DNA of 64,000 nucleotides, taken from the IMG/VR virus record IMGVR_UViG_3300030004_000009, positions 96,001-160,000 of that record, one strand, 5' to 3'. Below the pieces are notes generated by a model, which searched no databases, was not told the origin of the DNA, and saw only the letters and a program-made list of their open reading frames with translations. The translations under genes were made by a program, and so were the position numbers. Source of the stretch: a virus. The first letter of the stretch is position 1; the number at the start of each line of letters is the position of its first letter. Positions 5,991 through 52,514 of the stretch are shown here, piece by piece.

Positions 5991-6184
5991 ATAACATCAT
6001 TCATTCGTCTTATAATATCTTGATAATCATCAAGTGTACGTATATCTTCAATTAAGCCTTGTACATCATCAATATCGAGTTCTTCTCTTTGAACTACATA
6101 AACTATCGAATTATAAAGAGCATTTCTAGCTATTTTCAAAACATTATTAATAGCATCTTCATATTGTTCTTTTTCGTCCATCAC
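5987..6184 (-). CDS. Small acidic protein
   Basis: 65-aa ORF, paralogue of 5638..5814. Confidence 0.6.
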   Translation of the reverse strand: MMDEKEQYEDAINNVLKIARNALYNSIVYVVQREELDIDDVQGLIEDIRTLDDYQDIIRRMNDVI

Positions 6185-27018: not shown

Positions 27019-27049
27019 TATAATTTATTGTTTTACCACATCTGTGGTG

Positions 27050-27123
27050 TTATGAAGGTGAGATTCGGACTCACGACTTTCTCCATATCAGGGAGATACT
27101 CTAGCCAGCTGAGTTACTTCATA
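27050..27123 (-). tRNA. tRNA-Ile(GAT)
   Basis: Acceptor TATGAAG/CTTCATA; anticodon arm TCTCC-CTGATAT-GGAGA; T loop TCCGAAT (non-canonical). Confidence 0.85.
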
Positions 27124-27311: not shown

Positions 27312-27388
27312 TGCTCCCTCCTGAATTTGAATCAGGGACCTCCAAATTATGAGTTTGTTGCTCTAAAACCGGACTGAGCTAAGGGAGC
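27312..27388 (-). tRNA. tRNA(CAT), elongator Met or Ile2
   Basis: GCTCCCT/AGGGAGC acceptor; CAAA-CTCATAA-TTTG; TTCAAAT T loop; lacks initiator features. Confidence 0.85.
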
Positions 27389-29306: not shown

Positions 29307-29399
29307 TGTTGTGTTGTTTTTAAATTTAATTTATAAATAGAGGAAGGTTACCGTCCTTCTTAGATTCACCTGGTGATAGTGGGCTTCAACTCTATTTAA

Positions 29400-30727: not shown

Positions 30728-31140
30728 TTTGTATTTTAAGTCATTTTAGTGAATTTTAAACGATTATTTTTTATTAGTATGTCTTAATACTACTTTGGTA
30801 TTTTTATTGAACACGCGTTAGGAAAAGTACCTCTATTGCCAAATTTTAGGTCAACTTGCATTATGAATTTTCAAACTCTTAAATTTATTTTAAAATAAAT
30901 TTGGAAATCTCGATTATTTTTTGTAAGTTCATACGCGCGCATAATAAAGGAATCATTTATTTTAGAGTAATTCAACAGTCTACCTTTTAAGAAGTAAGTA
31001 TGAATTTAGAAAAATAGAAAGATAAAGTAAAAATAGAGTAAAGATACTTAAAAGTAAATAAAACCTCTTAAAAATAGGTGTGTAATTACGCGCGCGAGGC
31101 CCGTATCATGAGTTGTAAGTCTTATTGGCTTTTTTAGCTT

Positions 31141-33160: not shown

Positions 33161-33227
33161 GTAATAGATAGGATTTTATACCTACATCTCCAACTACAAT
33201 GTTGGACTCTAATTGAGCTACTATTAC
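33161..33227 (-). ncRNA. tRNA-like element (degenerate)
   Basis: GTAATAG/CTATTAC acceptor, TAGCTCAATTAGAG D arm, CCAAC-6nt-GTTGG arm, GTAGG-TATAAAAT-CCTAT T arm. Confidence 0.55.
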
Positions 33228-34768
33228 TTATGAAATAGTATCGTTATTCCACGATACATGACTAAAATGAGGATTAATAATCCTCCAATTGCTGCCAACT
33301 CTGGAAGAGCTATAACAGTAATTATACAACCCACTATGGAAAGTATAACTGATATAAAGAACATAGTTCTCATACATTGACTAATTTGTAATAGCTTACA
33401 CCATTACTGATTTCTGGCCCTTCTGCAACTAATAAATCGAATCGAGGCTGAGCTGCTTCAGCTACCTCTTTTGAAACAATATATAGTTTCTGAAAATTTG
33501 GGTCAGGATATGGTAATCCTTCTACTTTACTATACTCTCTACGATAGATGATTGTCATATCAATATCTACTTTCCGCTTAAGGGTAATGTTACAACGAGC
33601 ATGTCCGTTAAAAGTGAGTACTTTATACCCTAATCCGCTGTCTACTGTTATGCTACTTCCTGTGTAATTAAGGATTTGCATACGTTTTAAAATTTAAATT
33701 AACCTACTTTACTTTCGATTGGTTTCCTTATATCCCTAACATTCTCATTTTGAGAATCTGTAGGATAACTATAACCAAGTCTTTTATTCTCTTCTTCAAT
33801 AAAATTAAATAAGTCTTCTAAACAGTTATAAACTGACTGTAAATACTTATAATTTGTTGAAGTTAAACTTTTACCAGGATCTTCCGGGCCTTTTCCTGGC
33901 TCACAAAAATTAAGTTTTGTGATTACCCCATTAATGAGTGTTACCTCAAATTTGCCCTCATTGTGCCATTCAAGGCTGTTTTTTATCTCTCTATGATGTT
34001 CCATTTTTAATTGTTAATTGTTAATAAAAATAGAGGTTACACCTTGCGTTTGTCCCTCTATTAACCTAAACCTAAAATTACTATAAATTGTAACAGGTGT
34101 TACAAAGTCTTTAATCATAGACTACAAAATATGAGTCTAATAGTTGTTTACTCTTTGGAAGTTGTTTATATTTTATATTGTTACCTTTAGGAACTATTGT
34201 CTCAATCACATGAACCATGTGTTTAGTTGTTTGTCCTAATAAGTGATAATCATACATTACTTTAACTGCTGTATTTCTATTTGAAGTTGAAAATTGTTCA
34301 TCTACATTATACAAAATTTGCAGTAACTTATCTTCAAATGGATCAAGTGTCGCTTTTTCAGTTGTTTGTATGTTGCTATCACCTTTTTTATTATAATCCT
34401 GACTACTAATGGTTGAGATTAATTTAGGTAGACTAGCATTTAAAGTGTTAAGTGCATAAGTTGAGTTATACTTTGAAAGTTTATCTAATACAGGAATATC
34501 AAGTTTGATATTCTCAAGTAGTATTGTTTCGTTTATATAAATGTTCTGTAATGCTGCTAACTGTTTCTCTGTAATACTTCTGAACTTATAAAGATAAGTT
34601 AGAAGATCGATAGTAAACTCTTTAATAGATTGTGCTTTATTTGAATATAGAATACATGCAATCTTTAATAAGATCCATGCATTACTTCTATTTTTATTTT
34701 GAATGTCTTTAAGAGTATATCTTTTTGGGCGTGTTATTGTTTCCATAATGTTTATTTGATTTTAGTAA

Positions 34769-35270
34769 AGCTAAGGGCTGGTAATCGCAACCGCCGAGAA
34801 ATAAATTAACACTTAAGTAATACATTTAGGTGAAACTCACTTAAGTTAAATCAATCATTCAATCTCTGTTTAGAATTCTTATTTCTCTACCTGACTGGTC
34901 TGTGTCTTAGCTATTTCTTTAAACTTACTTGTAAAGCATTCTGGTTGCCGCACTCTGAGTGCTAAGTTAGCTCAGTTGACAAATTCCATCTTATTTAACC
35001 CGTCTCCTGGCGGTATGGGTACTTTACCTATAAGTTTTGTAGCCTACAGAGATTTGATACTCCACCTTCGTCTGATGATTTTTTGTAGACGACGCACTCA
35101 ATTATGCTAATAGGCTATGTTAATACTATCTTTGTTTCATGGCAATTTCCTTTAATAGTAATCACAATTGTAGATCTCCTACAACATCATACGATAGTAA
35201 TTCTTTAGCTAACGCGCCCTCTCGTTAGCAATTTTAATAACTGTATATATAAGTGTAACTGTTACACCTA
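34769..35270 (-). ncRNA. Run of closed structured RNA domains
   Basis: Terminal stems at 34769-34912, 34921-35037, 35039-35118, 35124-35199 and 35208-35229; no ORF in track. Confidence 0.45.
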
Positions 35271-35308
35271 ATAATATAAGCAATAAAGTTCCCATAAATT
35301 AGACGTTA

Positions 35309-35692
35309 TCATTCCAAAGCTTTTAACCTAGCTTCAATTTCCTCAACCGTAAGATCATTAAGCTTATCCTCATGTCTCTTAGCTAGGAGTTCCTTAAGTT
35401 TAGTTGCCTCTTGTTGTTTGACAGTCTTAGCTAACTTATCATTAGCTTCAGCTTGTTTAGTTTCAACAATGAACTTTAGGATATCAAGCTTGATATCAAG
35501 TTCAGTATTGGCACTTGTTTTCTTCTCTAAGAGTGATTTCTTAGAGGTTTTATCTTTTTCATCGCTTAATACTATATAAATAGCATCTAAGCTTGTAAGA
35601 GATAGACTCCACAAATCTTCTGTTGTAAGAAGACCTTTAGAGGAAGCAAAGCGTAATTTCTCACGCGATGCTGTAATAAATAATTGTTCCAT
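35309..35692 (-). CDS. Conserved phage protein, partner of 35696..37753
   Basis: LF..ASR.KLRF.S.KG.LT.EDLW.L.L..LD; helical. Confidence 0.65.
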   Translation of the reverse strand: MEQLFITASREKLRFASSKGLLTTEDLWSLSLTSLDAIYIVLSDEKDKTSKKSLLEKKTSANTELDIKLDILKFIVETKQAEANDKLAKTVKQQEATKLKELLAKRHEDKLNDLTVEEIEARLKALE

Positions 35693-35695
35693 GAT

Positions 35696-37753
35696 TTAAA
35701 AGTTGATTTTTAAGTTACGTTTGAAAGATCCTGAGACCCTTGCTATAATTGTATTCTGTTGTGTTTCAGAGAAGCCTACACCTGATAACTGGTGTTCATT
35801 AAATTGTATTTTAAGTTTAGAAGCCATCACTTCGAGAACCTTACGATTCTCGTTAAGTTTATTATTTAAAAACTCATTGTAAAATGGCCGTACTTCCTCG
35901 TTATTTACCGCTCCTTCAAGTATAAAGATGAAATGTTTATTACCAGTTTTAAGGGTATTTTCCCAATGGTTTGGAGATAACATAATACTTTTCACTTTAG
36001 TAAAGATATTAGTCTTTACTCCCCATTTCTCTTTAGAAGAAATATTCGAGTTAGTTGGTAATGATGGTTTGATAGTAAAGACACCTTGGTTAAGATTTAC
36101 CACTGCAATATCCATTCTACCTAACACACGTGTGTTATGATGAAAGTTATATATCTCACCATTAAACTCAACTTGTGCTTTAAAACCTGTATTCATTAAA
36201 CCATTATAGTTAACGATAGATAGTTTATAATTACCATCCTTCATCATATTGATATTGCTCCAGGTAATATTTTCAACTCTTACTTCTGGTTCATTAGAAT
36301 GACCCCTCATATCAACATCAAGATTACCAGACATGCTTGATTTACTAATTCCTTTATAAGAACTATAATAAATCTCAGTACCATTAGGTTCAATAGCGTG
36401 AGCATCAAAGTCAGGAGTTCCTTTAGTATCTTCATCATTCCATTGAATTGAAAATCTTAAGACACCACTAACATCACCACCAGCAGACTTTACACGCTCT
36501 TTCATTGAGTCAGCAATTCCACCAACATAAGACCATGAAAATGGATTGTCCCATTTAAACATTGATGGTGATTTAGGATTAACTGCTGTAATTAAACTAA
36601 TAAGGTTACTAAAGTGTGGCTGTTCAAGTAGAAGTTCAATAGTCTTAGCAGTTGGTACTACTTCTGTAAGGAACTTCTCAATTGTAATTTCTTCAACTTT
36701 CGATAAAGTCTTAGGATTAACCAAACTTGTTTTCTGTAAGTCACCAAAAATGTCACTTACCTCAGTACTACGATCTGTAAAGACAATATCATTAACACTT
36801 ATGTCAGTTGATACTGCAAAACGCCGATCAAGAGATTCAAGATAACCAAGCTCCTCTATTTTCTTCTTTGCTTCTTCTATCATTCGAGGAGTAATAGCTG
36901 CAGTCGGTCTTTTGTAGTTCGTAGGTGCAACCTTCTTCTCATAACGTGGCAAAGCGTCATCAATCTCAATACCAACACTTAAATCTTCAAGGAATGTACC
37001 GATAACTGAACCTCTTATGTTGTTAAGATAAGGAGTTTTAAGTGAGTTTATCCATACAAACTCATCTTTACCGGTAGTTAATTGGTCGTATGACCTTTTA
37101 AGAAGTAAGAATGCTTTTACCATCTCTACAAATTCAGCACCACGATAAAGTGAACCCTGTTTTGTAAGCTCAATCATTGTTTCAAGTGAATCAATAGTAA
37201 ACTCATCAAGTGCACGCTTAAGTGTTTGCTTACCTGTACGAAGGATACCTGCTTTTGAATCACGATCTTTCGCAGCTGTTAACGGTACATTACCAAGTTC
37301 TAACGAGAAATGCTGCCAATAAATCTTCTTTTCAGGATCAAAGTTCTTAGGTGTACCAACGATTCTTGACTCAGGAAGAAATACATCTGTAATTGGAAGT
37401 GATTCAATATAATCATTAACTAATGATATACTGTTCTCATACTCTTCTTCTATACCTCCAATGTTAAAATACCATAAACCTTGAGATTTATAGTTTTTGT
37501 CAATAAAACAGATACCGCTAAATTGACGTAAGAATGACTTACAACAATTACAGTTATTAGACTGTCTTATTACATCATTTTCAAACCCACTTAAGTAGAG
37601 TTCATACACTTTTTCTCGATCAACATTCTTATAAAAGATATGTTGCTCACCTTTAGCAAGCTGATTGTAGCGTTGCTGGACTAAATTTTTAACTTCACTA
37701 AACATAATTTGATCTTTTACAGGCGCACAATACCTGATTTGTTTAAAATACAA
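35696..37753 (-). CDS. Large conserved phage protein with CNCC motif and YfaP/DUF2135-like domain
   Basis: NCNCCKSF; LRFSIQWND..DFDAH..EPNG..IYY...LDVD...VENITW; start possibly at MFSEV. Confidence 0.65.
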   Translation of the reverse strand: MYFKQIRYCAPVKDQIMFSEVKNLVQQRYNQLAKGEQHIFYKNVDREKVYELYLSGFENDVIRQSNNCNCCKSFLRQFSGICFIDKNYKSQGLWYFNIGGIEEEYENSISLVNDYIESLPITDVFLPESRIVGTPKNFDPEKKIYWQHFSLELGNVPLTAAKDRDSKAGILRTGKQTLKRALDEFTIDSLETMIELTKQGSLYRGAEFVEMVKAFLLLKRSYDQLTTGKDEFVWINSLKTPYLNNIRGSVIGTFLEDLSVGIEIDDALPRYEKKVAPTNYKRPTAAITPRMIEEAKKKIEELGYLESLDRRFAVSTDISVNDIVFTDRSTEVSDIFGDLQKTSLVNPKTLSKVEEITIEKFLTEVVPTAKTIELLLEQPHFSNLISLITAVNPKSPSMFKWDNPFSWSYVGGIADSMKERVKSAGGDVSGVLRFSIQWNDEDTKGTPDFDAHAIEPNGTEIYYSSYKGISKSSMSGNLDVDMRGHSNEPEVRVENITWSNINMMKDGNYKLSIVNYNGLMNTGFKAQVEFNGEIYNFHHNTRVLGRMDIAVVNLNQGVFTIKPSLPTNSNISSKEKWGVKTNIFTKVKSIMLSPNHWENTLKTGNKHFIFILEGAVNNEEVRPFYNEFLNNKLNENRKVLEVMASKLKIQFNEHQLSGVGFSETQQNTIIARVSGSFKRNLKINF

Positions 37754-37778
37754 TCTTTATATGCTCTCAGATTGTTTG

Positions 37779-37880
37779 TGTATGCAGAAGGATACGATCC
37801 TTCGATCCCGTGAGGAAGGAGTAACTTATGAACTCGTCAATTGTTAACTCGTACGGTGCCCAACACCGCCTTGCGATACA
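37779..37880 (-). ncRNA. tRNA-like element with tRNA-Sec-like architecture
   Basis: 8-bp bulged acceptor TGTAT(C)GCA/TGCATACA, 6-bp D stem GCGGTG/CACCGT, variable hairpin, GAAGG-ATCGTAT-CCTTC T arm; abnormal anticodon arm. Confidence 0.55.
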
Positions 37881-38066
37881 TTTAATAAGTAGTAGTTATA
37901 CAGTAGAAACACCGATCAGCATTTAGATTATAAGTGAGCAGGATACTGATCCTCGAGGAATTTACCAGCTTCAGAGACTCATAACCAGCATTACCTTGTA
38001 CTTAGATTAACGGCTACTTAGCTATTACTACTGCTTTCCTACTATTTCTTTTTGATTGTTTTGAAG

Positions 38067-38483
38067 TGGAGTGTATGGGATTCGAACCCATGTCTTACTC
38101 ATCATTATAAAGCTTTCTACATGTTTAACTCAATTTTTATCGATAGTAGAGTTCCATCTATTTAGTTTTACATTCTAACAAATGTTTAAAAGCTTCTATT
38201 ACATTGCAGCTTAAATTAACTTTACATATTCCGCGTTTGGCCATAATTGTATGTTCAACTATCTGATTACACAGCCTAAGATCAGTATACTTTAACCCCA
38301 GATTAAGGGTCCACTATAACACTTTGTGTTAAGCTGCAATCCTCATAGAGGAAGTCCGGCTTGTCATGGAGATAACTTTACAGTTGCCATTTGAAATTTT
38401 GAAAGTTCTATTTAAAGTGGTCTCCTCACAACCCACTACATGCTTACTTTACTCTGTACGAGCAATCAATACCTGCACACCCC
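38067..38483 (-). ncRNA. ssrA: tmRNA; tag peptide (A)GNCKVISMTSRTSSMRIAA at 38388-38329
   Basis: GGGGTGT/ACACTCC-A acceptor with G3-U70; ATGGG-TTCGAAT-CCCAT T arm; TATTGA D-loop; resume context TCAAAT-GGC; tag ends IAA-stop. Confidence 0.92.
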
Positions 38484-41400
38484 ATGTAGTTTAAAAGTAA
38501 CCACTTATACCAGTGGTTGTTGGTCCGTTTCTTATTCTAACCGTAGAAAGTAATCATCAACGAGTTTCCCATTATATTTATAATTCTCAGTTGGGTCTGG
38601 CCAGTAGCTTACTGGATAGCGCATGCAGCTTCTTTTTAAATCATCACATATTCTCCATCAGGTCCTCTAACTGGAATATAATTAGACTGCTCTTTAGGTT
38701 CTTCAAGTAACTCTGGAAACACTTCTTCTAACCATTCGTTAAAGTACTCTCTATCAATACTAAGAGGATAAACTTCTTTACCTGCTTCTCTTGATATGCC
38801 TTTCATGTAAGCCTCCCACATTGCAGTTCTTATTTCTTCATTCGTCATACTTACTTTGCTTTATCATTTGTTTGTATAAACTTTCAAACTTTATTCTCCT
38901 AACTTCTAACCATTGTGAATACTCTTGTTCTTCATTGAGTTTACCATTAGAACCAGCTTGATAAAATTGCCACATAAGTTCTTTTAAAACCTCTCCTATT
39001 TCTATCATTTGTTATTTCATAAAAGGTTTAAAGATCTCTACCATTAACCATACATAAAGCACTGACACCAACAGTTTGAAAACAGTAATTACCACTATTT
39101 CTTTTATTTTGTTGTTAGGCTGTTTCATTTCTATAATTTTTAAACCATTCATCAAAATATTTAGTGACATCTCCAGTAGTATCAGTGACTAACTTTAAAC
39201 CTGCTTTATAAGCTTCTCGTAATAGCTCTATATACTCTAAATCTGAAACTTTGTAAACCTCATTGTAAAGATCAACAGGTATAAAATAAGCTGATAAACC
39301 TATCTCATCATGACCTTCAAGTTCCATACCAAGTATACATTCATTAAAGCGCTCGTGTTCCATGAAATCCTGACTTTCAGGCCATAGAACTAATTTATAT
39401 GTATTTGACATTTTTTGTTTTAATTAATAGTTAAAGAGCATCTTACATAACAGAATACCTATTAAAATATCTTTTATGGCTCATTATGACGGATAGCTCT
39501 TTAACTTGATTTATAGTAAACTTAAAAATAAGGGTCATCATTCACTGAATAAATATCGTCAATTGGGAATTCTTCACCTGTTGTAGCAATTGCTACTATC
39601 TCTCCATCAAGACCTAAGTGACAGCTATTAAATAGTAAAGGATAGTCAAAATGAAAGACAATTAGTTTATCACCTTCTTGTAATATCATCTCAACATCTC
39701 CTGTTCTATGTAGCTTAAAGCTACAGGTTTTGAAGTTGGTTGAATGTCATGAAAGCTAACTGTACAATTAGTCAGTTTTGAAGCATGATGTACAAACTGG
39801 TCTTTAGAGAGCTTTTCGTGTTGTTCTTCGCTTATGGTGAACACTTTGTTTCCATAAGCAGGAATGATAAAATATAACATGATCTCATTTATTTGGTTTT
39901 AAGTTTAATTAATAGTTTAATTAGGTAATTCAACCCAGAATTTCTTATTACAATTAGGACAATGATATTGTACAAAGTCACCATCAGCAACTCCACCACC
40001 TTTACCGTAGTCTTCATCTATTTCAATAGCATCTGGATGTTGCCATCTTCCTTGTTGTTCTTTATTCCAAGGATTTTCTTTAGTACATATTTGTCTTTCC
40101 ATTAGTGTTTTAGCTGATGGCTCAACAAGGAATTTGTTTACTGCCTGGTTTAATAAAAGCACCTGCTGGTATACCAGGTTTACCATTCATTGCGTTATAG
40201 TTACCCATCTTAGATGCTAACTTACGTTCTGCTTTCTTACGTCTACTTGATTTGCTCATTGTATAAAGTTAAAGTAATGTTGTTTAAGTTTATTTTTGGT
40301 TTCGTTCGATAACTCCGGTAAATGTAATAGGTTATTTAGGAAGATTTCAGGGTGTTTAGCATTACTCAAGAAGTAAACTAAATCATCCTCCATATCTTCA
40401 TCTATTACTTCTCTCATTCCACCACATTCTTGAGGATGTGCACAATGCCTTAGACCTTGTCTCTGACATGTACTACAATAGTGAAATTTCATTGTTTTTA
40501 AGTTAAGATTCCGTCGTGTATTACTTTGTCGTTATAGGTAACTCTTACCCTATCAGCGTACTGATTGAAGCTACAATATTTACCAAATCGTTCTACTGCT
40601 TCATCTTCAACACATTCAATATATCCCCAACTCTTATGATGTATGTAAGGGTAGTGTTGAATGTCCCAGTAATCAAGGATATGACGGTCATCCCGTTTTA
40701 AAAAACTACTAGGTTGACCAAAAGCTTTAATACAAGCTTCTTTAGTATTCCAGTACCAAGTAACACTGATACTAGGTAGCTTATCCCAATTAGGATGAGA
40801 ATCTTCAAACTCTTTTAAAGTGTATGCACCTGGATAATCATTATCTTTACCCCAAAAATTAATTTCTTGATCCTCAAATTCAGGACGAATTATCCAAGCA
40901 CACTTCTTAGAATGCCAATCAGTTATAGGTACTCCATCAGAATACTGATGTTGTCCATCCATTGAGTTAATGTGTACTTTCATTTAGTGTTTTGGATTAA
41001 AAGCTATAAGGTTAATAGTGCTTTTTTAAATTCTCTTTTGAACACAGTTTGTAAATCTAAACTATCTTCTCCTTCTTGTAGAATATCTGGTAATGAAGTG
41101 CCTTTTGGTACAGCTAAAATTACTTTTATTAATACATTAGGTATTTTTTGACTGTGGTAATCACCTTGTTGAACATGTTTAGTATGTCTACGTTCTTTCA
41201 TTTGGATTTCATAACTACGTTTAGTTAAAAACGATTGTACTTCTTCAATAGTGAAACTAGTTTCACTATTGACATAGCGATCTAGATAATAATCTTTACC
41301 TCTATCTTCACCAAAGTGTTCTCTGTATTGTTCTCTTGTTATCATGATTAGTTTTAATTAAAGGTGAAGCATGTTTCTCATGCCATTATAAAGATCAGGA

Positions 41401-41932
41401 TCAAGATCAGGATATAAATCCACAGTTAAGTCTTCCCACATTCTTTCGAGTTCTCTATCAGTTGGATAACTGTATATTAAGGAGTCATTATCTAAAACTG
41501 GAAGTACGTGATCATTAAATGTGTTGTGTAAGAAGTTACACAACACATGATTACCTCTCTTATGAAGCAAACTCATCGATTCTCTTATGTAGAGTTTGTT
41601 ATTGTCTCTTACATTCTTATGAGGACGAAGCCACATTATGTTATCATATTGCTTCCATGTTATATAGCTCCAATCATCATAAAATTCAAGAATACTATGA
41701 ACAAATGATTTTTGTCTAAAGTCGTAAGTCTTGAATGCTAAAACATCATAACACTTATACCAAAAGTCATGGCAATGATCTGCAAGATCAATGTCTGCAA
41801 TAAAGGATTTATCTCTTGTTGGTTGTTGTGATTGCCATACTTGATATCGTGGCGTTACTTGTTTTAGATACATGTTAGAGATCAGAGAGCTTAAAGTACT
41901 CTTGAGTGAAGACTATAGTCTAACTTTTAAAT

Positions 41933-42214
41933 TTACTCTTTAGGGAAAAGTTGCTTTTGTAAGCTAAGCAAAATCTTTACACCTGCTTCAGCTTCTTCAA
42001 GTTTATTTATGGCGTTTACAATGTCCTTTGCACTAAAAGGAGTAGCAGACTTTTCATTTTCCACCATTTGTCTTAAACTAACAACTGATCGCTCTGAAGC
42101 TAAGATGTCTGCTTGTAACTGTAGCTCTGCATCCTCCACCTGATATTGGAGTTCCAGGGATTCTTTGGCCTCCTGTGATTGTTGGAGTCTTTCTTTGTAC
42201 GATAATGTGCTCAT
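41933..42214 (-). CDS. Coiled-coil hypothetical protein
   Basis: 93 aa with an A-rich leader; overlaps the upstream gene by 137 nt. Confidence 0.6.
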   Translation of the reverse strand: MSTLSYKERLQQSQEAKESLELQYQVEDAELQLQADILASERSVVSLRQMVENEKSATPFSAKDIVNAINKLEEAEAGVKILLSLQKQLFPKE

Positions 42215-43049
42215 GTTTTTTATTTGTTTTTAAATTTAATTCTGTGTATTGTATTTCAGGTATGTTCCACTTAAGAAATGTTGCTTTAATTGTTGTATAA
42301 ATAATATGTCCACCTTCTAAAGCCCACCATACTTCATTTTTGTTATTAAAAGTAGCATGTTTCCAATACTCACCTCCTAATTCTTTCATTTTAGCTAGAA
42401 TCTGAAGACTTATATCATAATTAGGTGAGTAAACTTTGAAGTTATTAGGGAAACTAGACTGCCAATCAACCATTACAAACTCATTACATGGGTCAATAGT
42501 TCCTCTATAAGTATTAAAACCTGGCTCACCATAAGTTATCTTTTTAGCTTGATCAGTTAAATGTTCGACTATGCCAACTCCTCTAGGTATGATTTGTTTA
42601 CCTAAAATATCATTAACTGTAATAAGTTTATTACTGTGATAACTGAAGTAACTTGGAGTATTAGACCAACCAACGAGTCTGTCACTGTTTATAAATAAAT
42701 AAGGTGCTTCAGGATTAACTGTCTCTACTTTAACTGTATTCCAACCATAGCCTAACTCAAATAGTTTCTTCTGTACCAAAACACTTTCTTCTGGTGTAAC
42801 TTGTAGTTTGGTATTTCTAAAGTCTAATTCTTCAGTTACATTTAAACCATAGAAGCTATTGTAAAAATTTACAAAACCTTTAAGCGCTACATATGTTGAA
42901 TGACTTGTTACATCAACAATATAAAAAACGCTTGAATGTACACTATCAACACTATACGTTATGTGTTTTGAGAGTTTTAAATCTGCCCAAGCATTGAGTA
43001 CTTCTCCAGGAATTTCTTGACCTACTTCAACTTTTGTTATTGGTTTCAT
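42078..43049 (-). CDS. Hypothetical protein with overlapping C-terminal tail
   Basis: 323-aa ORF downstream of the phage 24-bp motif. Confidence 0.6.
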   Translation of the reverse strand: MKPITKVEVGQEIPGEVLNAWADLKLSKHITYSVDSVHSSVFYIVDVTSHSTYVALKGFVNFYNSFYGLNVTEELDFRNTKLQVTPEESVLVQKKLFELGYGWNTVKVETVNPEAPYLFINSDRLVGWSNTPSYFSYHSNKLITVNDILGKQIIPRGVGIVEHLTDQAKKITYGEPGFNTYRGTIDPCNEFVMVDWQSSFPNNFKVYSPNYDISLQILAKMKELGGEYWKHATFNNKNEVWWALEGGHIIYTTIKATFLKWNIPEIQYTELNLKTNKKHEHIIVQRKTPTITGGQRIPGTPISGGGCRATVTSRHLSFRAISC

Positions 43050-43110
43050 CTTCTTTTATTTTTAACCTTACTTATTAAAAGGTAAAACTACTAAATTAAG
43101 AGTAATCTAA

Positions 43111-43134
43111 CAGTCTCACCTTTTAAGTAGTAAG
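43111..43134 (-). promoter_or_regulatory. Recurrent phage motif CTTACTnnTTAAAAGGTRAGACTG (candidate phage promoter)
   Basis: Near-identical copy at 62941-62964 (+) upstream of TerL, and at 30976-30998 (-). Confidence 0.55.
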
Positions 43135-43145
43135 CATTGAGTTAA

Positions 43146-43670
43146 TTAACAGTTTCCATAACCACCTATTTGACCCGGCCCAACAGCTTTAGAGGCTTCC
43201 TTTTCAAACTTCTCCCAGGCTTCAAGATCAATGAAATCCGATACAATTTGAATTTTACTATCCCAGTGAATAAATGATGTACGATCCTTAACACAAACGT
43301 AAACTGGTACTTGACTTCCACCGGCTTTAGCTTCTTGTTTCTCTACAAATGGTAGAAGTGCGATCATATATCCAGCATGTCTAAAATGTACACCTCCACA
43401 TGTAGGACACTTTAAAAGTTGAAGTTCATGTGGATCAGCTGTTTTTATCATTTCACTTTGATTGTAAGCCCCTAAATCCTGTGTGATTTGAAGCTGTTGC
43501 ATTGGTATAGTTGTAAATTGTTCAATTGCTGCACCATAATCAAGAGCTAACTGCTCACGATGTTCTTCAGGGAAAGTGTTAATAAATGTCTCAAGTGATT
43601 GAGGTAAGTTTGGTGATGTGGCTAATAGTATAACTATTGCTTGATCAACTTCTGGTGTATCTGTTTTCAT
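43146..43670 (-). CDS. Hypothetical protein with Zn-ribbon-like motif
   Basis: CPTCGG.HF; start MKTDT follows the ACCCAAATAATA leader. Confidence 0.55.
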   Translation of the reverse strand: MKTDTPEVDQAIVILLATSPNLPQSLETFINTFPEEHREQLALDYGAAIEQFTTIPMQQLQITQDLGAYNQSEMIKTADPHELQLLKCPTCGGVHFRHAGYMIALLPFVEKQEAKAGGSQVPVYVCVKDRTSFIHWDSKIQIVSDFIDLEAWEKFEKEASKAVGPGQIGGYGNC

Positions 43671-44699
43671 TATTATTTGGGTTTTAAATTTTAAAGATAA
43701 AGAACTCGTGTGATTGTTTCCAACCAAATCCATCTGCCTTGACCCAGTTAGATTCCTGTTATTTCACTGGCACGAGTATATTGTTAATTAAGACCACTTA
43801 TTAGACGTTCTTCAAGGTTTTCGTCTATAATGATTACATTTTTATATGCATCGATAGTCTCCAATTGTTTAATAAAAGAATTCCAATTATCAATACGCAT
43901 TACTGTTACACCTGTATTTAACTTTTGTGAAGCATACCTTGCAATATCGTAATCAATTTTATTACCTGTAGTAATAAGAAGTAGGTTTTGTTTACTTCTT
44001 TCAACTAGTTCAATACCTTCGAGGTATTTAGTGTATAGTATACATCTATCGCCATCTTTATTAAAATATTGAATTGCTGCTGAGGTTTCAGTTAACTCAG
44101 TAAGAACACCTCTTATTATTTCTCCAACAAAGGATGCTTTGACTATATCTCCTACTTTAAGAGCTTCGTCGTTTTGGTTTTCTGTCATGATTTATAATTG
44201 TTTTGTTTGGTTACTTGATTTGAAACTCCTTGAAGACCGAGACTATAAGAGAGTCTATCTAAGAGTTAATTAACTATTGATTATCATTGATTTTTTATTT
44301 AATAAAGAACGATTTACAGTCTCAATATCATTAAGGAGTGAGGCATCACCCTCACTCCAAACCAAATAACAGTTAGAATCTAGGGTTCTAACTACCGATC
44401 ATGAGAAACAGTGAATACGTTACAGATGCGACCTGTGTAACTCCTGATAGTACGTATTAGTGCTATTAGTCAGCTCCTTGATGACTTTTATTGTGATTTA
44501 CCGGTCTGAATTTCTTTTTTTCTTTTTGTTTCTTATTTGCATATTCTGTTTTTAATTCGTCTGTTGTCATGTCACGATGAGTTGTACCTTGTACTTTTGT
44601 TTCATCTTTCTTATTACTTGCCATTGTGTATTTTGTATTAAACTGTAATTGGAAGAATATGCATAGACAAACTCCCTGGCTTTTTGTTTTATTACAGTT

Positions 44700-46115
44700 A
44701 GACAAGAGATAAGGATCTGAGCCTATACACCTAAAGTGTCTCTTGTGGAAAGTTACGCATTGTTACGTACCCTTCTTCTACTCATTCCAATAGCCACCAC
44801 TATGATAGCTATAATAGGCAAGAGTTGTGCTGTTAGTCCAATCCATAACATTGTAGTGTTTTTGAGATTAATAGATTTATCATTATCTCAGACTTTAGCG
44901 TGAGATGTTAGTTTAATTGCTGTCCTTTAAAGACATTTAAATACCTAAGTATACAATCTATCACCTTATTAATGATAAATGAGCTACTATAGTTTCTTCA
45001 GGATTTGGTATAAACATATTACTTGCTCAAGGTAATATAAAAGTCCCCATTGTTAGCTCCTGATTGCTTCATTTGTCTTTTGAGTACAAGGCCCAGTTCT
45101 ACATTTTTACAAATGATTATAAAGGTGAGAGTTTGCAACCTCTTTTCCTACTGTAGAATGGCACACACTTAATGTAAATGAGAGAAGCTAGGTCTCAGCG
45201 GCCTAGCTATTACAACGATAAACTCTCATTTTTTAATATTATGAAGCACTCTGTTATAGCTTATTACTAAGACTAATACACTATGAATCATAATTTTTTA
45301 ACAGGAATAGTTTACTCACCTGTTGATGCTTGGACACTCTCAAGCTTTGTCTTAGTGGGTTCTTTCAATGTATTACTACATCGTGAAATCTTATAAAGAT
45401 CTATCACACACCTCATACTTGGATACAAGGTTGTTCATTTATAGCACTCCAAGATACTACTTATTGAACTAACTACACTGAGACCCTAGATTCTATCTCA
45501 CATTCGGATTATTAGGTATTGTAGTTATATTTTAAAAACAGAGCTCATGACGAAAACCCGGCGTAGTAAACTACAGTCATGGTAACATATCTCTATATAA
45601 TTCGAAGCGGTTTTGCACTCTGTTTAAATTTTCAAACTCAAAGCTCTTATTTAAGTACTATACAGCTAGACGTATACATAGCTTTTATTTGTATAGGTTC
45701 TGTTCTCTGAACAACCGCCATTACTTAAATAGCTTTCTTTGAGTTATATTTTAATATAATTACTCGTTCTAAATAACTGTTGAATAAATCCTTCCTGATC
45801 TACTGCTTACTTCAATTATTGACGAGTAATTATATTTTTTAATCTTTGATACCTTTTAAGTAGTAAATGTAACGTGGAGGTGTTAGTAATTTCTTATATG
45901 TATAAATTTTTTAAAGCTCCAACTACGTACGTAGCCTTGCTAGTACGAATAACGCTGTCCTAATAAAAGTTAGGAGCCTATGGGATTCTGCTACTGTTTA
46001 CCCCACCATTTTACTGGAAACCCCGGTTATCCTTTTGGCCCGGAAGGTCAGCTTTAGGTTATCAACCCTACATTTAGACTAAGCAAGCCTAGTCGGAGAT
46101 AAGCCCGACTCGTAT
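44700..46115 (-). ncRNA. 1.4-kb ORF-free tandem array of closed hairpin/multistem domains
   Basis: Terminal stems at 44702-44746, 45177-45230, 45470-45527, 45536-45625, 45635-45745 and 45753-45836 (15 bp perfect), plus a GC-rich multistem at 45913-46112. Confidence 0.5.
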
Positions 46116-46420
46116 CTTATATGCACTCAAATAAGTTGTCTAGCCATTTATGATCTTTGATATCTAGTGCATGTTGTTTTAATACCTGTTCTTTCTCTTC
46201 TTCACTTGACCATGTAAGTAATTGTGATGCAGGATTTGGTGTTCCAGCATAGATGTCTAAAGCTATCATAAATGGTAACTCTTTTGATCTGCATAATTCT
46301 TTGATGGTTTCATTATGATGATACGCTTTGTATAGAATTACAATACCTCGTTTACCTTCTGTCTTGATCTCTAATGCATCTGCTATTTCTGTGTTCATGA
46401 CTATTTGGTTTAAATGTAAG

Positions 46421-46494
46421 TATAGTGTATGGGACTTGAACCCATGATCTTCACATTGAAAATGTGACGTCTTAACCAGCTTGACCAACACTAC
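46421..46494 (-). tRNA. tRNA-Glu(TTC)
   Basis: GTAGTGT/ACACTAT acceptor; TCACA-TTTTCAA-TGTGA; ATGGG-TTCAAGT-CCCAT. Confidence 0.88.
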
Positions 46495-46543
46495 ATGACT
46501 TGCCCTCCTTATTAAAAGGTGAAACTAGTATAAAGATTTAAAG

Positions 46544-46631
46544 TAAACCATATGCAATTCGAATGCAAACCTCCTTTCGACGTCGTTACAGGTGTTCTCT
46601 GACTGAGTAGCCAGCTTAAACTAATGGTTTA
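46544..46631 (-). ncRNA. tRNA-like element with remodelled D and anticodon arms
   Basis: TAAACCAT/ATGGTTTA acceptor, TGCA-TTCGAAT-TGCA T arm, extra CTGGCT/AGTCAG hairpin in the D loop. Confidence 0.55.
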
Positions 46632-47102
46632 ATTGTACAGTAGTACAATGTGGTTTTGGCCCAACATTTAGTTGTAGGCACTTTGTTTTTCATGTTACTT
46701 GATTTTATTGCCACTCTCTTCCTTTTATTAATGCAATACCTAACGGTTTTGAATCTACTACAAATTGCCATGTGTAATCTGTAACCATCCATAACTTATC
46801 ACACGTTAAATCATAAGAACAAAATGTAAGTCCATTTGAAGTAGCTTTATAATTATAAAGCTTCCATCTTATTTGATCTTTATCTCTAACTAATTGTGTT
46901 AATTTATAGATTATTTGGTTATAAACCACGTTATCAATTTGTATTGTGTTGCGTTTAATTTCAGTACTATATGTTGGTTCTGCTCTACTCATCTTCTTTT
47001 GAGGAAGTTGTAAGCCCTCGAACTGTTCATTAATTGGCCATAAAACAAATAGAAAAACGCTTTGATTAATTAGTGGTTTTTTCATGTTATTTAGTTTTAC
47101 AT

Positions 47103-47161
47103 TTAGCTGATGGCTCTTAGCTGATGGCTCTTAGCTGATGGCTCTTAGCTGATGGCTCTTA
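47103..47161. repeat. Four perfect tandem copies of TTAGCTGATGGCTC (14 bp)
   Basis: Read directly; a single further copy at 40110-40123. Confidence 0.95.
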
Positions 47162-47166
47162 AAGTA

Positions 47167-47192
47167 AGGAGTTAGTATTGCTACTAACTCCT
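47167..47192 (-). terminator. GCAA-tetraloop hairpin (terminator or processing site); relatives at 49135-49160, 51226-51251, 51784-51815
   Basis: 11-14-bp stems all capped by TA-GCAA-TA on minus. Confidence 0.6.
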
Positions 47193-47573
47193 AATTGAAT
47201 GAAAAGATAATAAAAGAAATAAACTATAATAGTGATTGTAATGTTTGAAAGTTTAATTAAATATTTTGTTTGACGTGTTTTACGTTCTAAAATCATTTAT
47301 TAATCTTCCTGTAACGCTACAATTCGTTATAGGCTAATAAAGAGGAGTAAACTCTCTACCGTAACTTGACCTTTACTCTTCATTAGTTAATTATAAATGC
47401 TACCTTTATTACTCTGTTGAGTATAATTAAGCCGTGTCGCTATATGCTATCCTGTGACTCATTTATAATTAAATATTTAGTGATCGTAACATTTGTATTA
47501 AGGTTACAATTCGTTATAGAATCAGTAACTAAGATAGTTCCCACTATTCTTTCTAACTTAGTTAACAAACGGT

Positions 47574-47649
47574 TGGTTACACATTATGGATTTGAACCAC
47601 AATCAAGAGAACCAAAATCTCCTATCCTAGCCAGTTGGACGAATGTGCA
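47574..47649 (-). tRNA. tRNA-Gln(TTG)
   Basis: TGCACAT/ATGTGTA-A-CCA; GGAGA-TTTTGGT-TCTCT; GGTTCAAATCC. Confidence 0.9.
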
Positions 47650-50339
47650 ATTTAACTTTAAGAATAATATAATTACTGCTTATGAGGATTAAGGTAATAC
47701 TCATAAGCTACCACCAGCCATCCATCTCAAGTACCCACATGTGACCATCCTTAAGGTTTTACATATAGTAATCTTGGTTCCTCACTATACTATTCTTTTA
47801 ACTTAGAATTGCTATTATGATTCCTATTACTAAAAAAAGTAAAAAGATTAATAGACATTCTTTGAATGTTTGTGGATCAGGGTAAGTCGTCATCTTCTAT
47901 AAGTTTTTTAATTAAATATCGAATAGTTAAACCTGTTCCTACTATAAGTACAGCTAATGTACCTAGAATGTAATAAAATATTTCCATTGACTTTGTTTTT
48001 AATGGTTATCGTAGCCATTATAATAAATCCATGCTTTTAGACATAGAATACAAGTATAAACAAGTGCTACGATTAATAAAAGATAGATCATACTTTGTTT
48101 TGATAATTTGTGATTGTAAATGGTTTAATGACCGATTTAATTGAAGGGAGTTGCTGTTCGTTTTGAAGTAGAGTGATGAAAGCAGCTTGTGTCTTTAAAT
48201 CTTTGAATTCTTGTTCTTTAAGGTCTCCTTGATAAACTCTTAAAGTTTCTCTTGGAAGTATGATTAAAGTATAAATATTCATAATATTTGGTGACCATTT
48301 CCCTGTCATCACTCTACCTAAAACTGTTGTAATTTGCATTTTAAAAATGTTGCTCACTGTTACCAGGATAATTATAGTTATCAGAAGGTAAAGCATCACT
48401 ACCGTCAAATGTTCCAATAGGTTCAACTACTGGAACTTCATCATCAATCCAATTTTTTAGGTATTGTAATTTACTGATTGTTAAAGGCTGAATGATAAAG
48501 TTATCAGGTAATATTGATGGAATTAAAGGTTGACCAATCTCGTCTTCATCGAGATTGTAAGTTACGAACTCTGGTGTTTGTAAAGCTTCAGGTAAACCTA
48601 ACCATTCAGGTAAGTCACCACCATGAAACCAGAAGGCTTCAAGAATAGTTATTACACTGTGTTTGACAAGTGGTTCGTTAATTTCCTCTTTGATTTCTTC
48701 GACGCCCTCAATACTTGTGTGTAATGCATCAAGTCCTTGATTGACATACGTGTCAATTAAAGCTTGAAATTTTGGTGTGTAAAGTCTGATTATTCTCATG
48801 ATTTTGGTTTTAAGTTTGTTGTTTTATAACCACTTTGGTGGATTTCCTGGTAATTTACTTGCTAAATATTTGAATAGTAAACGAACTAAATATCCTAATA
48901 CAAATATCCAAGAAGATAAAGCTATTATTAAAGTTAATAGTATATCATCCCAAGTCCACTCTGTACTTATAGATTTTATAAAAATCCGCTTAACTAATTT
49001 GTAGGCTATAACATAACCTATAAAGTATATTGCTGTTAATATCATAACTTAACTGTTTAATAATAAGATGAATAAGATGAATAACAATAAAGCTATCCAT
49101 TCAATTTTGTTTAGTTTCATAATGTTTAAATTAAGGAGTTTAGTATTGCTACTAAACTCCAGCTGTTGATTTGATTTCGCACTTCAAATGTTCTTACTGC
49201 TCTTTAGGTAATTTAAGAGTTTTCCTATAATCCTCTATAATTATTGTATAAATAGATGGTGGATAATAAAAACCTTCACTATTAATGTGGAGCTCGTCGC
49301 CTTGTTTAAATACAGTATCTATGTCTAAGGGGATATAGACAGGAGTAACATCTCCAGCTTTTGCATTTATTGGTGAGTTTAACCATTTTCCTCTATAGAC
49401 TTTATAAGTTATAGAGTCAGAGGTTGAAGCCACATATGTTCCTGAATAACAGGATTGAAAGCTTAATGCGATTAAGCTGATGAATAAAATAATTGTTGTT
49501 TTCATGATTATTTGGTTTTTATGTTGATTATTTGATTTCTTTAGAATAAACATACGCTTGCTACTTACTTTTACATGAACGTGTACACATTATGTTAATA
49601 ACCTAAATAGTGTTGATACTGCTTTATAAATGGAAACCCATTTTGTAGAACTATACCTGCAATTAAGCAAGGCTACAAGAATATTTTTCGTATGTTTAGT
49701 TTTTAAAGCTCAACCTTTGCTATAAAAGGTTGAGCCGAGTGTTGTATTACCATCTTTAATATTTCACCACCGTTAAAGACCTTGTCCAAACAGAATGGTA
49801 TTGATGATTTGTAAGCTGGCATGATTAGTCTTTTAGCTCCTCAAATCCTATTCCTTTTACAAGATAGAATTTGTCATCGTCTTGGATAACATCTCCTACT
49901 GATGTACTACGTACTCCTGGATTCCATTCTTCATCCAGATTCTGTGATTTCTTAAATGCTTCATCTAATGATGTTGCATTAACAAAACCTACATACTTAC
50001 GTGGTTGACTTTTGGTTTCAGTAAACTTTAAAGGACCAGTTGCATGATGAATGTGAAATTGTCCTTCTTCCTCCTGAACAGGTGGAAATAACTCTTGCCA
50101 TTCTTCATCTATAATACCTGTAAGGTAGAACTCTCTTAAATCTTGTGGCAAATTACTGAAAGCGTCTTGAAGATGAGCACCTTTTTCATAGGCTGCGATT
50201 TGTTCTTGTGTAATAGGAAGATCTATTGTCCTCTCTATTCCACTGTACTGTGAAACTCGTGTTATATTCATGATGATTATTTGGTTACTTTTTAATAACA
50301 GGAATAGCTTCTTCACCTGTATATAGATATACCTTCTAC

Positions 50340-51224
50340 GCGTGCGACTTAATGAGATATCCTTTGTGTAGTTTCAACACTTCTCCCTGCTAGGGTTGTT
50401 TAGATTTAAGGGAATAGTTTTCTCACCCTTTATATTACCACTCATCAGGATTCATAGCCTGTGGTAACTTTGCATACTCTTTCAATGCTCTAACTTGTTT
50501 TGTGTGGATAGTTATTTAAGGTTTTCTCTATCCCAGCAACCAGGCTTCTACTATTTTTGATTTCAGTGGTTCAGCTTATTCCCACTTCTTCTTGTTTCTC
50601 GTTATTTGCTTTCATTGGTACAAGTCAATTAAGCTCAACAATTTGTCCTTCATTGTGTTAGTCTTCCCTCTTGGACTACAGAGTGTAATTAAACGCACCG
50701 TCTCCGATTTACACGGATCATAACAACTATCTTATAAATTGCTGTTATAATGGCTCAAGGTCGCTTAGTTGTCTTTTAAACAACATAACTGATGCGTATT
50801 TTTGGCCTTTGCACTACACTTCTTAGCCTGTGTTAGGGTGAGATTGATTACTCACTTGGTCGCTGGCCCAGCTGTTTACTGGCTTTTTAACTGATTGGTT
50901 AAATAATACATGCATTAGCTAACTTGAAAAGAGTTAGCGGTGATTAATAAATGTCTCACAACATTAATGGCTGTTCATAAACTAGCTTAATTAGAGCAAA
51001 TGAGTCGAGATTCGAACTCAATGAAACGTGATAGTTAAATAAAAAACGATGTATGAACTATGGAAACAAAAACTCTTAACTATCTATTCCTTTCCTACCT
51101 CATTTAATTAAACACTAAACTATGTATAATTCCTGCCAACGGAAGCTATTATCACCAACAATTGCCGGCAAAGTCCGCACGCCGTATTAATGGACTTACA
51201 AATTATACTATAGTTTAGTGTTTA
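50340..51224 (-). ncRNA. ~0.9-kb ORF-free cluster of structured elements
   Basis: Includes a tRNA-like element at 50998-51105 and a three-way junction at 51109-51224 with a 15-bp perfect basal stem. Confidence 0.5.
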
Positions 51225-52514
51225 AAGAGTTAGATATTGCTATCTAACTCTGTGTTTGTTATTCAATGATTTCACCTAACAACCACTCGCGAATGTCAAG
51301 AAGTAAGAACTTCTGAGCAATGTAAGTGTCTGGATTAAAGTTACCAATTCGGTGATTTGGATTTGTCTCAATCCTTTCTGCATTTGCTTTCTCTTTACCC
51401 GATTCTTCATCACGTTCTTCTTCACAATGTTTCATTCTTGCTTCAAGCCATTTGCGCATTAACATGACTTCAACACGGTTGAGTTCAATGTGAAACATAG
51501 CTTCGTCTTTAATGTCGTAATACGCCTTTTCAAGTGCATAATGACTTAATTTACGAAAGAGAGTGTTTGCTTCATCACTTGTTAGTTTATGATGAAAGAC
51601 GCCAAGTAAGATTTGCCTTACTGAAAACAATGACAATGTGAAGAGTGCTGAAATGTTGAAATTTACGTATCTAGGTTCGTTAACGGTTTGTACGTTTGAG
51701 GTTTTAAAGCCTGTTAATGGGATGTTTGATGTGTTCATGATCTTTGATTATTTGGTTTTTATGATTATTTGGTTTCTTTTTAATTGAGAGTTTAATATTG
51801 CTATTAAACTCTCAAGTGTTAATGTTTGTTTTCTGTGATCATAAAGTCATAAGAGTTTCTTGTATTACCTACACTAAATTCCATATAACCATACTCACAA
51901 TTCTTGTCTCTGTATTCCTGATTCCCTACTAAATGGTCTTTAGACCATTCTTTAAAATCTTCTTCGTTGACAATCTTAGTATCTTCTGTGTATACTAAAA
52001 GAATTTCTTTCTTGTGTGTTTCAGAAGAACTTGTATGAGGTCTCATTAATATTAATTTACCTTCTAATACAACTTTGTTGCTTTTGTTCATAATGTAAAA
52101 GTACATGATCTTTGATGTTTTTAATATGATGTTATTTGGTTATTTGGTTATTTACTCTTTTGGATATTAACACTCCCTTACTCCTATTTTATTTAAACAA
52201 TTGTTTAAAACAACTTTTAATAGTCTGAAAGGTGATTTGTGGTTTTATTTTCATTCATCGTAATATTACGATTGATCGAAAAATGATCATTTTTGAACGA
52301 AATTGAGCACTTAAATTTACACCACCAAGTTAAAAATAGACTTAGTTCCGTTTTTAGACTAATGGAGTGGATGTGTACTACAAGCTTGTATTTGATCTAC
52401 GAGATTCTCGTAATTGAAAATAACCGCTATGTCGATCGACTATTCCATTCATTTCAATTACAAAATTAACACTCTCAAGTCCATACTAGACATGAGAGTA
52501 AGAAAAGAGAAAGC

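Follow-up and report, generated by a model that had tools for sequence, protein, structure and literature searches.

The stretch analysed here, referred to below as the window, comprises 64,000 nt (bases 96001-160000) of the 176.7-kb virus record IMGVR_UViG_3300030004_000009 of IMG/VR and has a G+C content of ~32%. All genes from position 1 to ~54000 of the window are encoded on the minus strand, and five structured elements, named E1-E5, were examined within this block; all are located in gaps free of open reading frames (ORFs) and are to be read on the minus strand, which is the gene strand. An earlier sequence-only reading of this DNA had presented E1-E4 as a set of transfer RNA (tRNA) mimics, with E5 as a possible minimal version. 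Our analysis showed that the five elements are heterogeneous and do not form one family. The interpretation that we favour, with a probability of about 0.5, is that E3 and E4 are derivatives of tRNA genes within an island of tRNA and transfer-messenger RNA (tmRNA) genes, that E1 is of a type produced by chance, and that E2 and E5 represent another kind of hairpin. The elements, together with the ORF-free stretch next to E4, are as follows.

E1, 33161-33227, minus strand: four-arm cloverleaf of 67 nt.
E2, 37779-37880, minus strand: bulged closing helix and hairpin, between the tmRNA gene and a gene for a 685-aa protein.
E3, 46545-46630, minus strand: element of 86 nt, located 50 nt upstream of tRNA-Glu.
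E4, 50998-51105, minus strand: element of 108 nt, with an acceptor and T-arm minihelix and a 9-bp inner helix.
E5, 29334-29398, minus strand: 9-bp AU-rich closing helix and hairpin.
ORF-free stretch, 50317-50997, minus strand: 681 nt directly 3' of E4, with a fold z-score of -2.1 (20 shuffles).

The most complete tRNA-like features were observed in E4. Its acceptor helix (AAAUGAG/CUCAUUU, discriminator G) is fully Watson-Crick paired at 7 of 7 positions and stacks without a gap on a T arm (UUGAG-UUCGAAU-CUCGA) in which all five stem pairs form, including G53:C61. The loop, which conforms to UUCRANY, is identical to the T loop of the phage tmRNA. Within the element, a 9-bp helix (GATAGTTAA/TTAACTATC) encloses 35 nt, with 44 nt lying between the strands of its 5-bp GATAG/CTATC stem. 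With the sequence parsed as GAUAG-UUAAGAG-[37 nt]-CUAUC, this long helix becomes a putative 5-bp anticodon arm, with U33 and A37 in its 7-nt loop, that carries an insert; such an arm is obtained only when the 37-nt insert is taken out. No D stem is present in E4, and its place is occupied by a 12-nt unpaired region, AGGAAAGGAAUA, which contains GG and resembles the class-II Leu D loop GGAAAUGGUAGA of a 133-kb phage designated G001.

E3 also combines an acceptor helix with a T arm. The acceptor stem (AAACCAU/AUGGUUU) is paired at 7 of 7 positions with one extra pair outside, and the T arm (UGCA-UUCGAAU-UGCA) forms four of five stem pairs, with a U.U mismatch at 49:65 and an A53:U61 pair. The 5' half of the element contains U8-A9 and a D stem (GUUU/GAAC), whose loop begins with AAGCUGG and is enlarged by a 6-bp hairpin. 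The same heptamer is found in the D loop of the tRNA-Glu lying 50 nt downstream, at a position that differs by one; by our rough estimate, the odds of such a match at that position are ~1 in 10,000. No usable anticodon arm can be drawn for E3. The acceptor stems of both E3 and E4 are AU-rich, as are those of the phage's own tRNAs, and start with A. Taken together, these features suggest that E3 and E4 are probably tRNA-derived.

The stems described in the sequence-only reading are thus present, and its statements that two elements carry a TTCGAAT loop (E3 and E4) and that none has a normal 7-nt anticodon loop were both confirmed: the loop of E1 has 6 nt, E2 and E3 have none, and E4 acquires one only by subtraction of the insert. 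The 9-bp helix of E4 was found as described, with an enclosed length of 35 nt instead of ~40. An acceptor stem stacked on a T arm had been proposed for four elements and was recovered in E3 and E4; E2 lacks a T-loop, and the T loop of E1 lacks UUC.

To place these observations against chance, dinucleotide shuffles were used as the null. The strict form was defined by a 7/7 acceptor, a 5/5 T stem and a TTCRANN loop, the relaxed form by a 4/5 T stem, and the relaxed cloverleaf by pairing of all stems with loops of 6-9 nt. In the 12.2 kb of ORF-free DNA, read on the gene strand, the expected numbers were 0.017 for the strict form (E4), 0.147 for the relaxed form (E3) and 0.063 for the cloverleaf (E1). 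On this strand of the ORF-free DNA, E4 was the sole non-tRNA match to the strict minihelix; reading those gaps on the other strand gave no matches. By this test, the support for E4 is real though modest; geometry by itself supports E3 weakly, and E1 receives no support.

Several results weigh against a tRNA origin of E3 and E4. When the window is taken as a whole, on both strands, the counts match those expected by chance: 0.28 strict matches were expected and E4 was observed, 2.7 matches with a 4/5 T stem were expected and E3 was observed along with two in coding sequence. Because the criteria were chosen with the elements already in view, the E4 result is suggestive, the case for E3 depends on its additional features, and E1 is a borderline case. 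An RNA was assigned to the tRNAs when it scored at least 29 bits with Rfam RF00005 or was called by ARAGORN. The ARAGORN check proposed in the sequence-only reading returned none of the five elements in its default run, and the Rfam tRNA and tmRNA models missed them at the gathering score, at E ≤ 1 (29 kb) and at E ≤ 10 (580 nt). A further model, R1, was built here from tRNA-likes lacking the anticodon arm (acceptor, D arm, short linker, T arm); at E ≤ 10 it also missed E1-E5, and its matches in the window were one stray site and two genuine RNAs, the T arm of the tmRNA at 16.4 bits and tRNA-Glu at 15.9 bits. No CCA is encoded at the elements. The cloverleaf-like fold of E4 is not its minimum-free-energy fold, and its fold z-score is -0.7. 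No homologue of the elements was found, and a blastn comparison with 24 related loci yielded no significant match. Upstream of the gene in one of these loci (L001), a 23-nt match (E=0.07) was rejected as a promoter-like hairpin. ARAGORN runs with lowered thresholds or in intron and mitochondrial modes returned 30-219 calls per window and were discarded as noise.

The remaining elements behave differently. The minimum-free-energy fold of E1 is a four-arm cloverleaf (z-score -3.1) with seven acceptor pairs, a D arm of 4 bp with a 5-nt loop, an anticodon arm of 5 bp with a 6-nt loop and a T arm of 5 bp with an 8-nt loop. Its loops are atypical, the D loop lacking GG and the T loop, UAUAAAAU, lacking UUC. 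E1 begins at the stop codon of a small upstream ORF and is followed by a U-rich run. It was called by ARAGORN in mitochondrial mode only, as one of 30 calls of which most are noise, and its weak Rfam matches lie far below the cut-offs (skipping-rope, 17.8 bits against 36.7; SpF41, 18.6 bits). The relaxed cloverleaf is expected 1.0 times per shuffled 64 kb, and the whole 176.7-kb genome contains E1 and two other non-tRNA cloverleaves, as expected. E1 is thus a cloverleaf of the kind that chance provides.

E2 and E5 are not tRNA-like. E2 is formed by a closing helix with a bulged C and the hairpin GAAGG-AUCGUAU-CCUUC (37787-37803), and E5 contains the hairpin GAAGG-ACGGUAA-CCUUC (29343-29359); neither loop is a T-loop, and both have the form A..GUA. 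In each element the hairpin lies directly 5' of the 3' strand of the closing helix. The pattern GAAGG-N7-CCTTC occurs at just these two sites in the 176.7-kb genome, with a rough expectation of ~0.04, and the two elements may be copies of a small non-tRNA motif. A search for a wider family sharing the A..GUA loop found none. The minimal version of a tRNA mimic proposed at E5 was therefore not borne out, its loop being ACGGUAA and its hairpin stem being shared with E2. An acceptor helix joined to a 5-bp hairpin with any 7-nt loop was matched 84 times in the window on both strands, E5 among them, so that this generic geometry alone is meaningless. A 5-bp anticodon arm with a 7-nt loop, U33 and a purine at 37 is absent from E1 (6-nt loop), E2, E3 and E5, and a 7/5 minihelix with a UUCRANY loop is absent from E1, E2 and E5. 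Of the proposed set of mimics, a tRNA origin thus remains plausible for E3 and E4; E1 stands at chance level and E2 and E5 carry a different hairpin.

The genuine RNA genes of the phage, four tRNAs and the tmRNA, are all located on the same strand within one 25-kb stretch, and a search of the remaining genome outside the window yielded no additional tRNA.

tRNA-Ile (GAU), 27049-27123, minus strand: genuine.
tRNA with CAU anticodon, 27312-27388, minus strand: genuine, 60.3 bits with Rfam, missed by ARAGORN in default mode.
Phage tmRNA, 38064-38483, minus strand: 63.3 bits with Rfam, missed by ARAGORN, with G3:U70 in the acceptor and the T loop UUCGAAU.
tRNA-Glu (UUC), 46420-46494, minus strand: genuine, 67.7 bits.
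tRNA-Gln (UUG), 47574-47649, minus strand: genuine, 48.4 bits.

The acceptor stems of these tRNAs are AU-rich and have U, U, G and G as first bases. In megablast and blastn searches against 50,697 phage records, the region matched at tRNA-Glu only, and this tRNA resembles the tRNA-Glu of the Bacteroides phages DAC15 and DAC17. In the tmRNA, one reading frame ends in ...SMRIAA-stop, a plausible tag, and 25 of the 29 bases of the T arm and 3' acceptor strand are identical to tRNA-Glu. E1, E3 and E4 have A:U at pair 3:70, where a tmRNA has G3:U70. Repeated sequences were also observed in the island. A 14-nt unit, GAGCCATCAGCTAA (minus strand), is present in four tandem copies at 47103-47172, in the ORF-free stretch downstream of tRNA-Gln, with a partial copy at 40096-40123, and TATAACGAATTGTA(A/G)C occurs twice on the minus strand in the ORF-free stretch after tRNA-Gln, at 47502-47519 and 47313-47330, ~190 nt apart. 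The motif CCTTTTAA(G/T)AAGTAAG was found in both orientations, at 30983, 31513, 37094 and 43119 on the plus strand and at 43066, 46503 and 53040 on the minus strand. One copy sits between E3 and tRNA-Glu, and the motif may be a promoter or protein-binding site.

The proteins encoded around the elements are mostly ORFans, the small ones in particular, without a Pfam or PHROG function. For the 685-aa protein adjacent to E2 (PHROG 1735), the best relatives, from IMG/VR and JGI metagenomes, are 35-44% identical. The regions upstream of the genes for these homologues are unrelated to that of the window, with the exception of L013. In the gap right upstream of the homologous gene in L013, at 1504-1592 (plus strand), there is a strict acceptor and T-arm element with the T loop UUCAACU, an inner hairpin loop CUGAUAA and a long extra arm; its relative place is that of E2, and it was called by neither ARAGORN nor Rfam. 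At a distance from the island, a protein encoded at 6181-7311 (minus strand) carries an N-terminal dATP/dGTP diphosphohydrolase domain (PF18909, E=1.7e-27), a family associated with adenine replacement in phage DNA.

In the surroundings of E4, the order from 5' to 3' on the minus strand is an ORF (51738-51259), an 11-bp GCAA-capped hairpin (51251-51226), a domain closed by a 14-bp stem (51223-51110), E4 and the 681-nt ORF-free stretch. This stretch contained no ORF in any genetic code tried and gave no Rfam match. Stop-codon reassignment was considered as a cause of the ORF-free gaps and rejected, as reading TAG as Gln or applying code 4 left the gaps closed. Neither GOLLD, ROOL nor any other Rfam model matched positions 25000-54000 (E ≤ 1) or the six gaps searched singly (E ≤ 5). 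The GCAA-capped hairpin is one of four related, perfect GNRA hairpins of 11-14 bp on the minus strand (51784-51815, 51226-51251, 49135-49160 and 47167-47192), whose stems follow the pattern GAGUU(U)AGUA...; all four are situated just 3' of an ORF, and UUAA or UUAC follows each of them. These hairpins are likely transcript-end or processing hairpins of the gene block. The large phage RNAs GOLLD and ROOL are located near tRNA islands, and GOLLD can contain tRNAs (10.1101/2024.12.08.627333); by analogy, an association of E4 with the 681-nt ORF-free stretch is plausible.

What E3 and E4 might do can be considered from the parts that they keep. The acceptor/T-arm minihelix is the part of a tRNA recognised by RNase P, RNase Z and the CCA-adding enzyme. 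In the proposed model, both elements would have lost a decodable anticodon arm, and E4 its D stem as well, with E3 keeping a D stem whose loop became enlarged; both would have retained the coaxial minihelix with its UUCGAAU loop. If they are transcribed within minus-strand polycistronic RNAs, their ends could be cut by RNase P and RNase Z. A cut E3 would separate the upstream ORF from tRNA-Glu, and a cut E4 would sit at the head of a 681-nt ORF-free RNA. Because only the part of the tRNA read by the end-processing enzymes is kept, such punctuation, whether incidental or selected, would be the most likely activity of E3 and E4; its structural prerequisite, the minihelix, is seen in both. A phage-encoded CCA-adding enzyme was looked for and none was found. 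Genome complementarity to the rebuilt loops, as expected of antisense targets, never exceeded 12-14 nt, which is the chance level.

Non-decoding tRNA-like elements were also identified in other phages. G001 has ~13 proteins in common with the genome studied here, so that its elements serve as a precedent and not as homologues. Four of them are non-standard: two, of 58 and 60 nt, have the anticodon arm deleted and score 32.8 and 36.5 bits as tRNA, one is a 132-nt cloverleaf with a large insert, and one of ~100 nt has odd inner hairpins. In a further tRNA of G001 the anticodon loop has 9 nt (CAAGAGAAA), and a loop of 9 nt (UACUCCCAA) was also observed in a tRNA-Gly-like gene of another genome, G002, at 85531-85605. 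The 58-nt element of G001 aligns with the tRNA-Gln of the same phage, with acceptor, D and T arms kept and the anticodon arm deleted; two pairs of the T stem and two of the acceptor differ between them at both bases. One of the G001 armless elements directly precedes an ORF-free stretch of ~430 nt. The two G001 copies of non-coding RNA downstream of tRNA or tRNA-like elements share few motifs and 47% identity, and an nhmmer profile of this RNA found nothing in the genome studied here.

A pattern scan of IMG/VR (TGGTAAG, 8-18 nt, GGTTCGARTCC) revealed a 59-nt family with acceptor, D arm and T arm and without an anticodon arm. At least 15 IMG/VR contigs carry the family. Covariation was observed in its T stem, and the Rfam tRNA model assigns it 45.2 bits. 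In L066 the element sits behind tRNA-Asn and tRNA-Trp. It also occurs, unannotated, in the Lactobacillus plantarum phages phiJL-1 and Sha1 (GenBank AY236756 36456-36672 and HQ141411 3824-4132), and no description of it was found in the literature searched. As these 58-59-nt armless elements covary and score as tRNA, phages do possess non-decoding tRNA-likes that selection has kept. In the Lactobacillus-type contig L066, a weak match to the Hatchet ribozyme (23.6 bits against a cut-off of 51) was seen at 4324-4449 (plus strand), just after an oversize tRNA-like element. The loci are as follows.

G001 tRNA-likes, minus strand: four non-standard elements at C1:72054-72113, ~72885-72985, 99239-99370 and 99797-99854, with L002:4028-4104 listed alongside.
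59-nt family: L066:4118-4177 (plus strand), L059:9152-9211 (minus strand) and ~13 further IMG/VR loci.

Other explanations have to be weighed against this background. It is rather unlikely, in our judgement, that all five elements are chance structures picked from AU-rich non-coding DNA, none of them tRNA-derived or functional as such. The nulls do reproduce the counts (strict 0.28, relaxed 2.7 and cloverleaf 1.0 per 64 kb, with 84 generic matches), all profile searches were negative, and the fold z-scores of E3, E4 and E5 are weak. Against this, E4 is expected only 0.017 times in the ORF-free DNA of the gene strand, with the opposite strand empty, E3 further shows U8-A9 and, in its D loop, a correctly placed 7-nt agreement with tRNA-Glu, and the exact UUCGAAU loop is present in both. 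A comparably low probability is given to the view that E3, E4 and perhaps E1 are tRNA-scaffold RNAs in which selection keeps the minihelix as an RNase P/Z cutting signal that frees adjacent mRNAs and ORF-free RNAs. This corresponds to the punctuation model of the sequence-only reading. The uneven state of E4, with acceptor and T arm intact (12 pairs, consensus T loop) and the D stem gone, would fit this view, as would its position directly 5' of the 681-nt ORF-free stretch, the abutment of E1 on a stop codon, the covarying anticodon-less tRNA-likes of other phages, including the one in G001 that precedes ~430 nt without an ORF, and the proximity of GOLLD and ROOL to tRNA islands, with tRNAs included in some GOLLD RNAs (10.1101/2024.12.08.627333). 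It is opposed by the mismatch in the T stem of E3, by the fact that an RNA array adjoins E4 only, by the failure of E1-E5 to match the conserved armless class (R1) and by the outcome of the homologue searches, which found no relatives that could show maintenance. Somewhat less probable again is the broader proposal that E3 and E4, and perhaps E1, are kept as anticodon-less RNase P/Z handles, by which mRNAs and ORF-free RNAs would be freed and given their ends, or as acceptor-end decoys, and form a divergent branch of a wider, unannotated class of phage tRNA-likes.

The sequence-only reading had also suggested decoys for anticodon nucleases, which fit poorly because the elements lack the anticodon stem-loop on which such nucleases act. 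In its wider form, in which the elements would soak up tRNA-targeting defence enzymes, acceptor-end attackers included, the idea draws on the acceptor end kept in the elements and on reports that phage tRNAs counter tRNA-cleaving defences (PMC10264068, PMC11464382). No CCA is encoded, however, and nothing ties the elements to a defence or counter-defence gene, the neighbours being ORFans; we regard this role as very improbable. An even smaller chance is left for E3 and E4 as remnants of integration sites, in which the 3' half of a host tRNA gene would have been copied in the manner of an attP site and the pairing of the 5' acceptor strand would be fortuitous. Such an origin is favoured by the frequent presence, in phage attachment sites, of a copy of a host tRNA's T arm and 3' acceptor strand. 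A tyrosine integrase was searched for in the 176.7-kb record and none was found, and the AU-rich acceptors starting with A look like those of the phage's own tRNAs and not like typical bacterial ones; host-derived attachment sites are therefore disfavoured. The 5' half of E3 is moreover tRNA-like as well.

With E3 and E4 read as derivatives of the phage's own tRNA genes, their closest counterparts are degenerate phage tRNAs (RF00005), which are already known from phage tRNA islands and to which the two would add. Shared features are the strand and neighbourhood, the 7-bp acceptor on a T arm with a UUCGAAU loop and, in E3, U8-A9 and the GG of the D loop; E3 and E4 differ in scoring below all tRNA thresholds, in lacking a 7-nt anticodon loop and, for E4, in having no D stem, and at 86 and 108 nt they are longer than a normal tRNA. 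The armless tRNA-likes of 58-61 nt (G001, at least 15 IMG/VR contigs, phiJL-1 and Sha1) likewise have acceptor and T arms, do not decode and lie in tRNA islands or short gaps, but they keep a canonical D arm, show a clean deletion of the anticodon arm, score 33-45 bits and covary, whereas E1-E5 are unmatched by R1. The layout of E4 (acceptor, GG-bearing unpaired D-loop analogue, T arm, and a long helix where the anticodon stem would be) recalls the tRNA-like domain of tmRNA, and a real phage tmRNA with an identical T loop lies 13 kb away. Unlike tmRNA, E4 has no G3:U70, no tag reading frame, no pseudoknots and no Rfam tmRNA score, and its insert is only ~35 nt.

Modules shaped like a tRNA that adjoin a long non-coding RNA or separate cistrons, and that can recruit RNase P/Z, are also known from mascRNA at the MALAT1 3' end, from mitochondrial tRNA punctuation and from GOLLD-embedded tRNAs. 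In contrast to GOLLD and ROOL, the stretch downstream of E4 matches no Rfam family, and processing of E4 is a prediction from its minihelix. Irregular tRNAs and allo-tRNA polycistrons have been described from peat and forest soil (PMC5389517). They resemble the elements in their peat origin, in their irregular cloverleaves and in a role that may be regulatory and not one of decoding. The acceptor/T geometry is 8/4 or 9/3 in allo-tRNAs, whose anticodon loops are intact; it is 7/5 in E3 and E4, in which a usable anticodon loop is lacking.

If E3 and E4 are worn tRNA genes, the phage would possess a tRNA island in decay, with four working tRNAs compared with 13-14 in two other large phages examined. 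The elements would also serve as a caution that cloverleaves picked by eye in AU-rich DNA are often due to chance. Should the minihelices prove to be kept on purpose, tRNA punctuation and the mascRNA/MALAT1 system would have a counterpart in a bacterial virus, which would offer a handle on how the long non-coding stretches of the phage are cut out. A more solid by-product is the presence of conserved, unannotated armless tRNA-likes in cultured Lactobacillus phages, where their function is directly testable.

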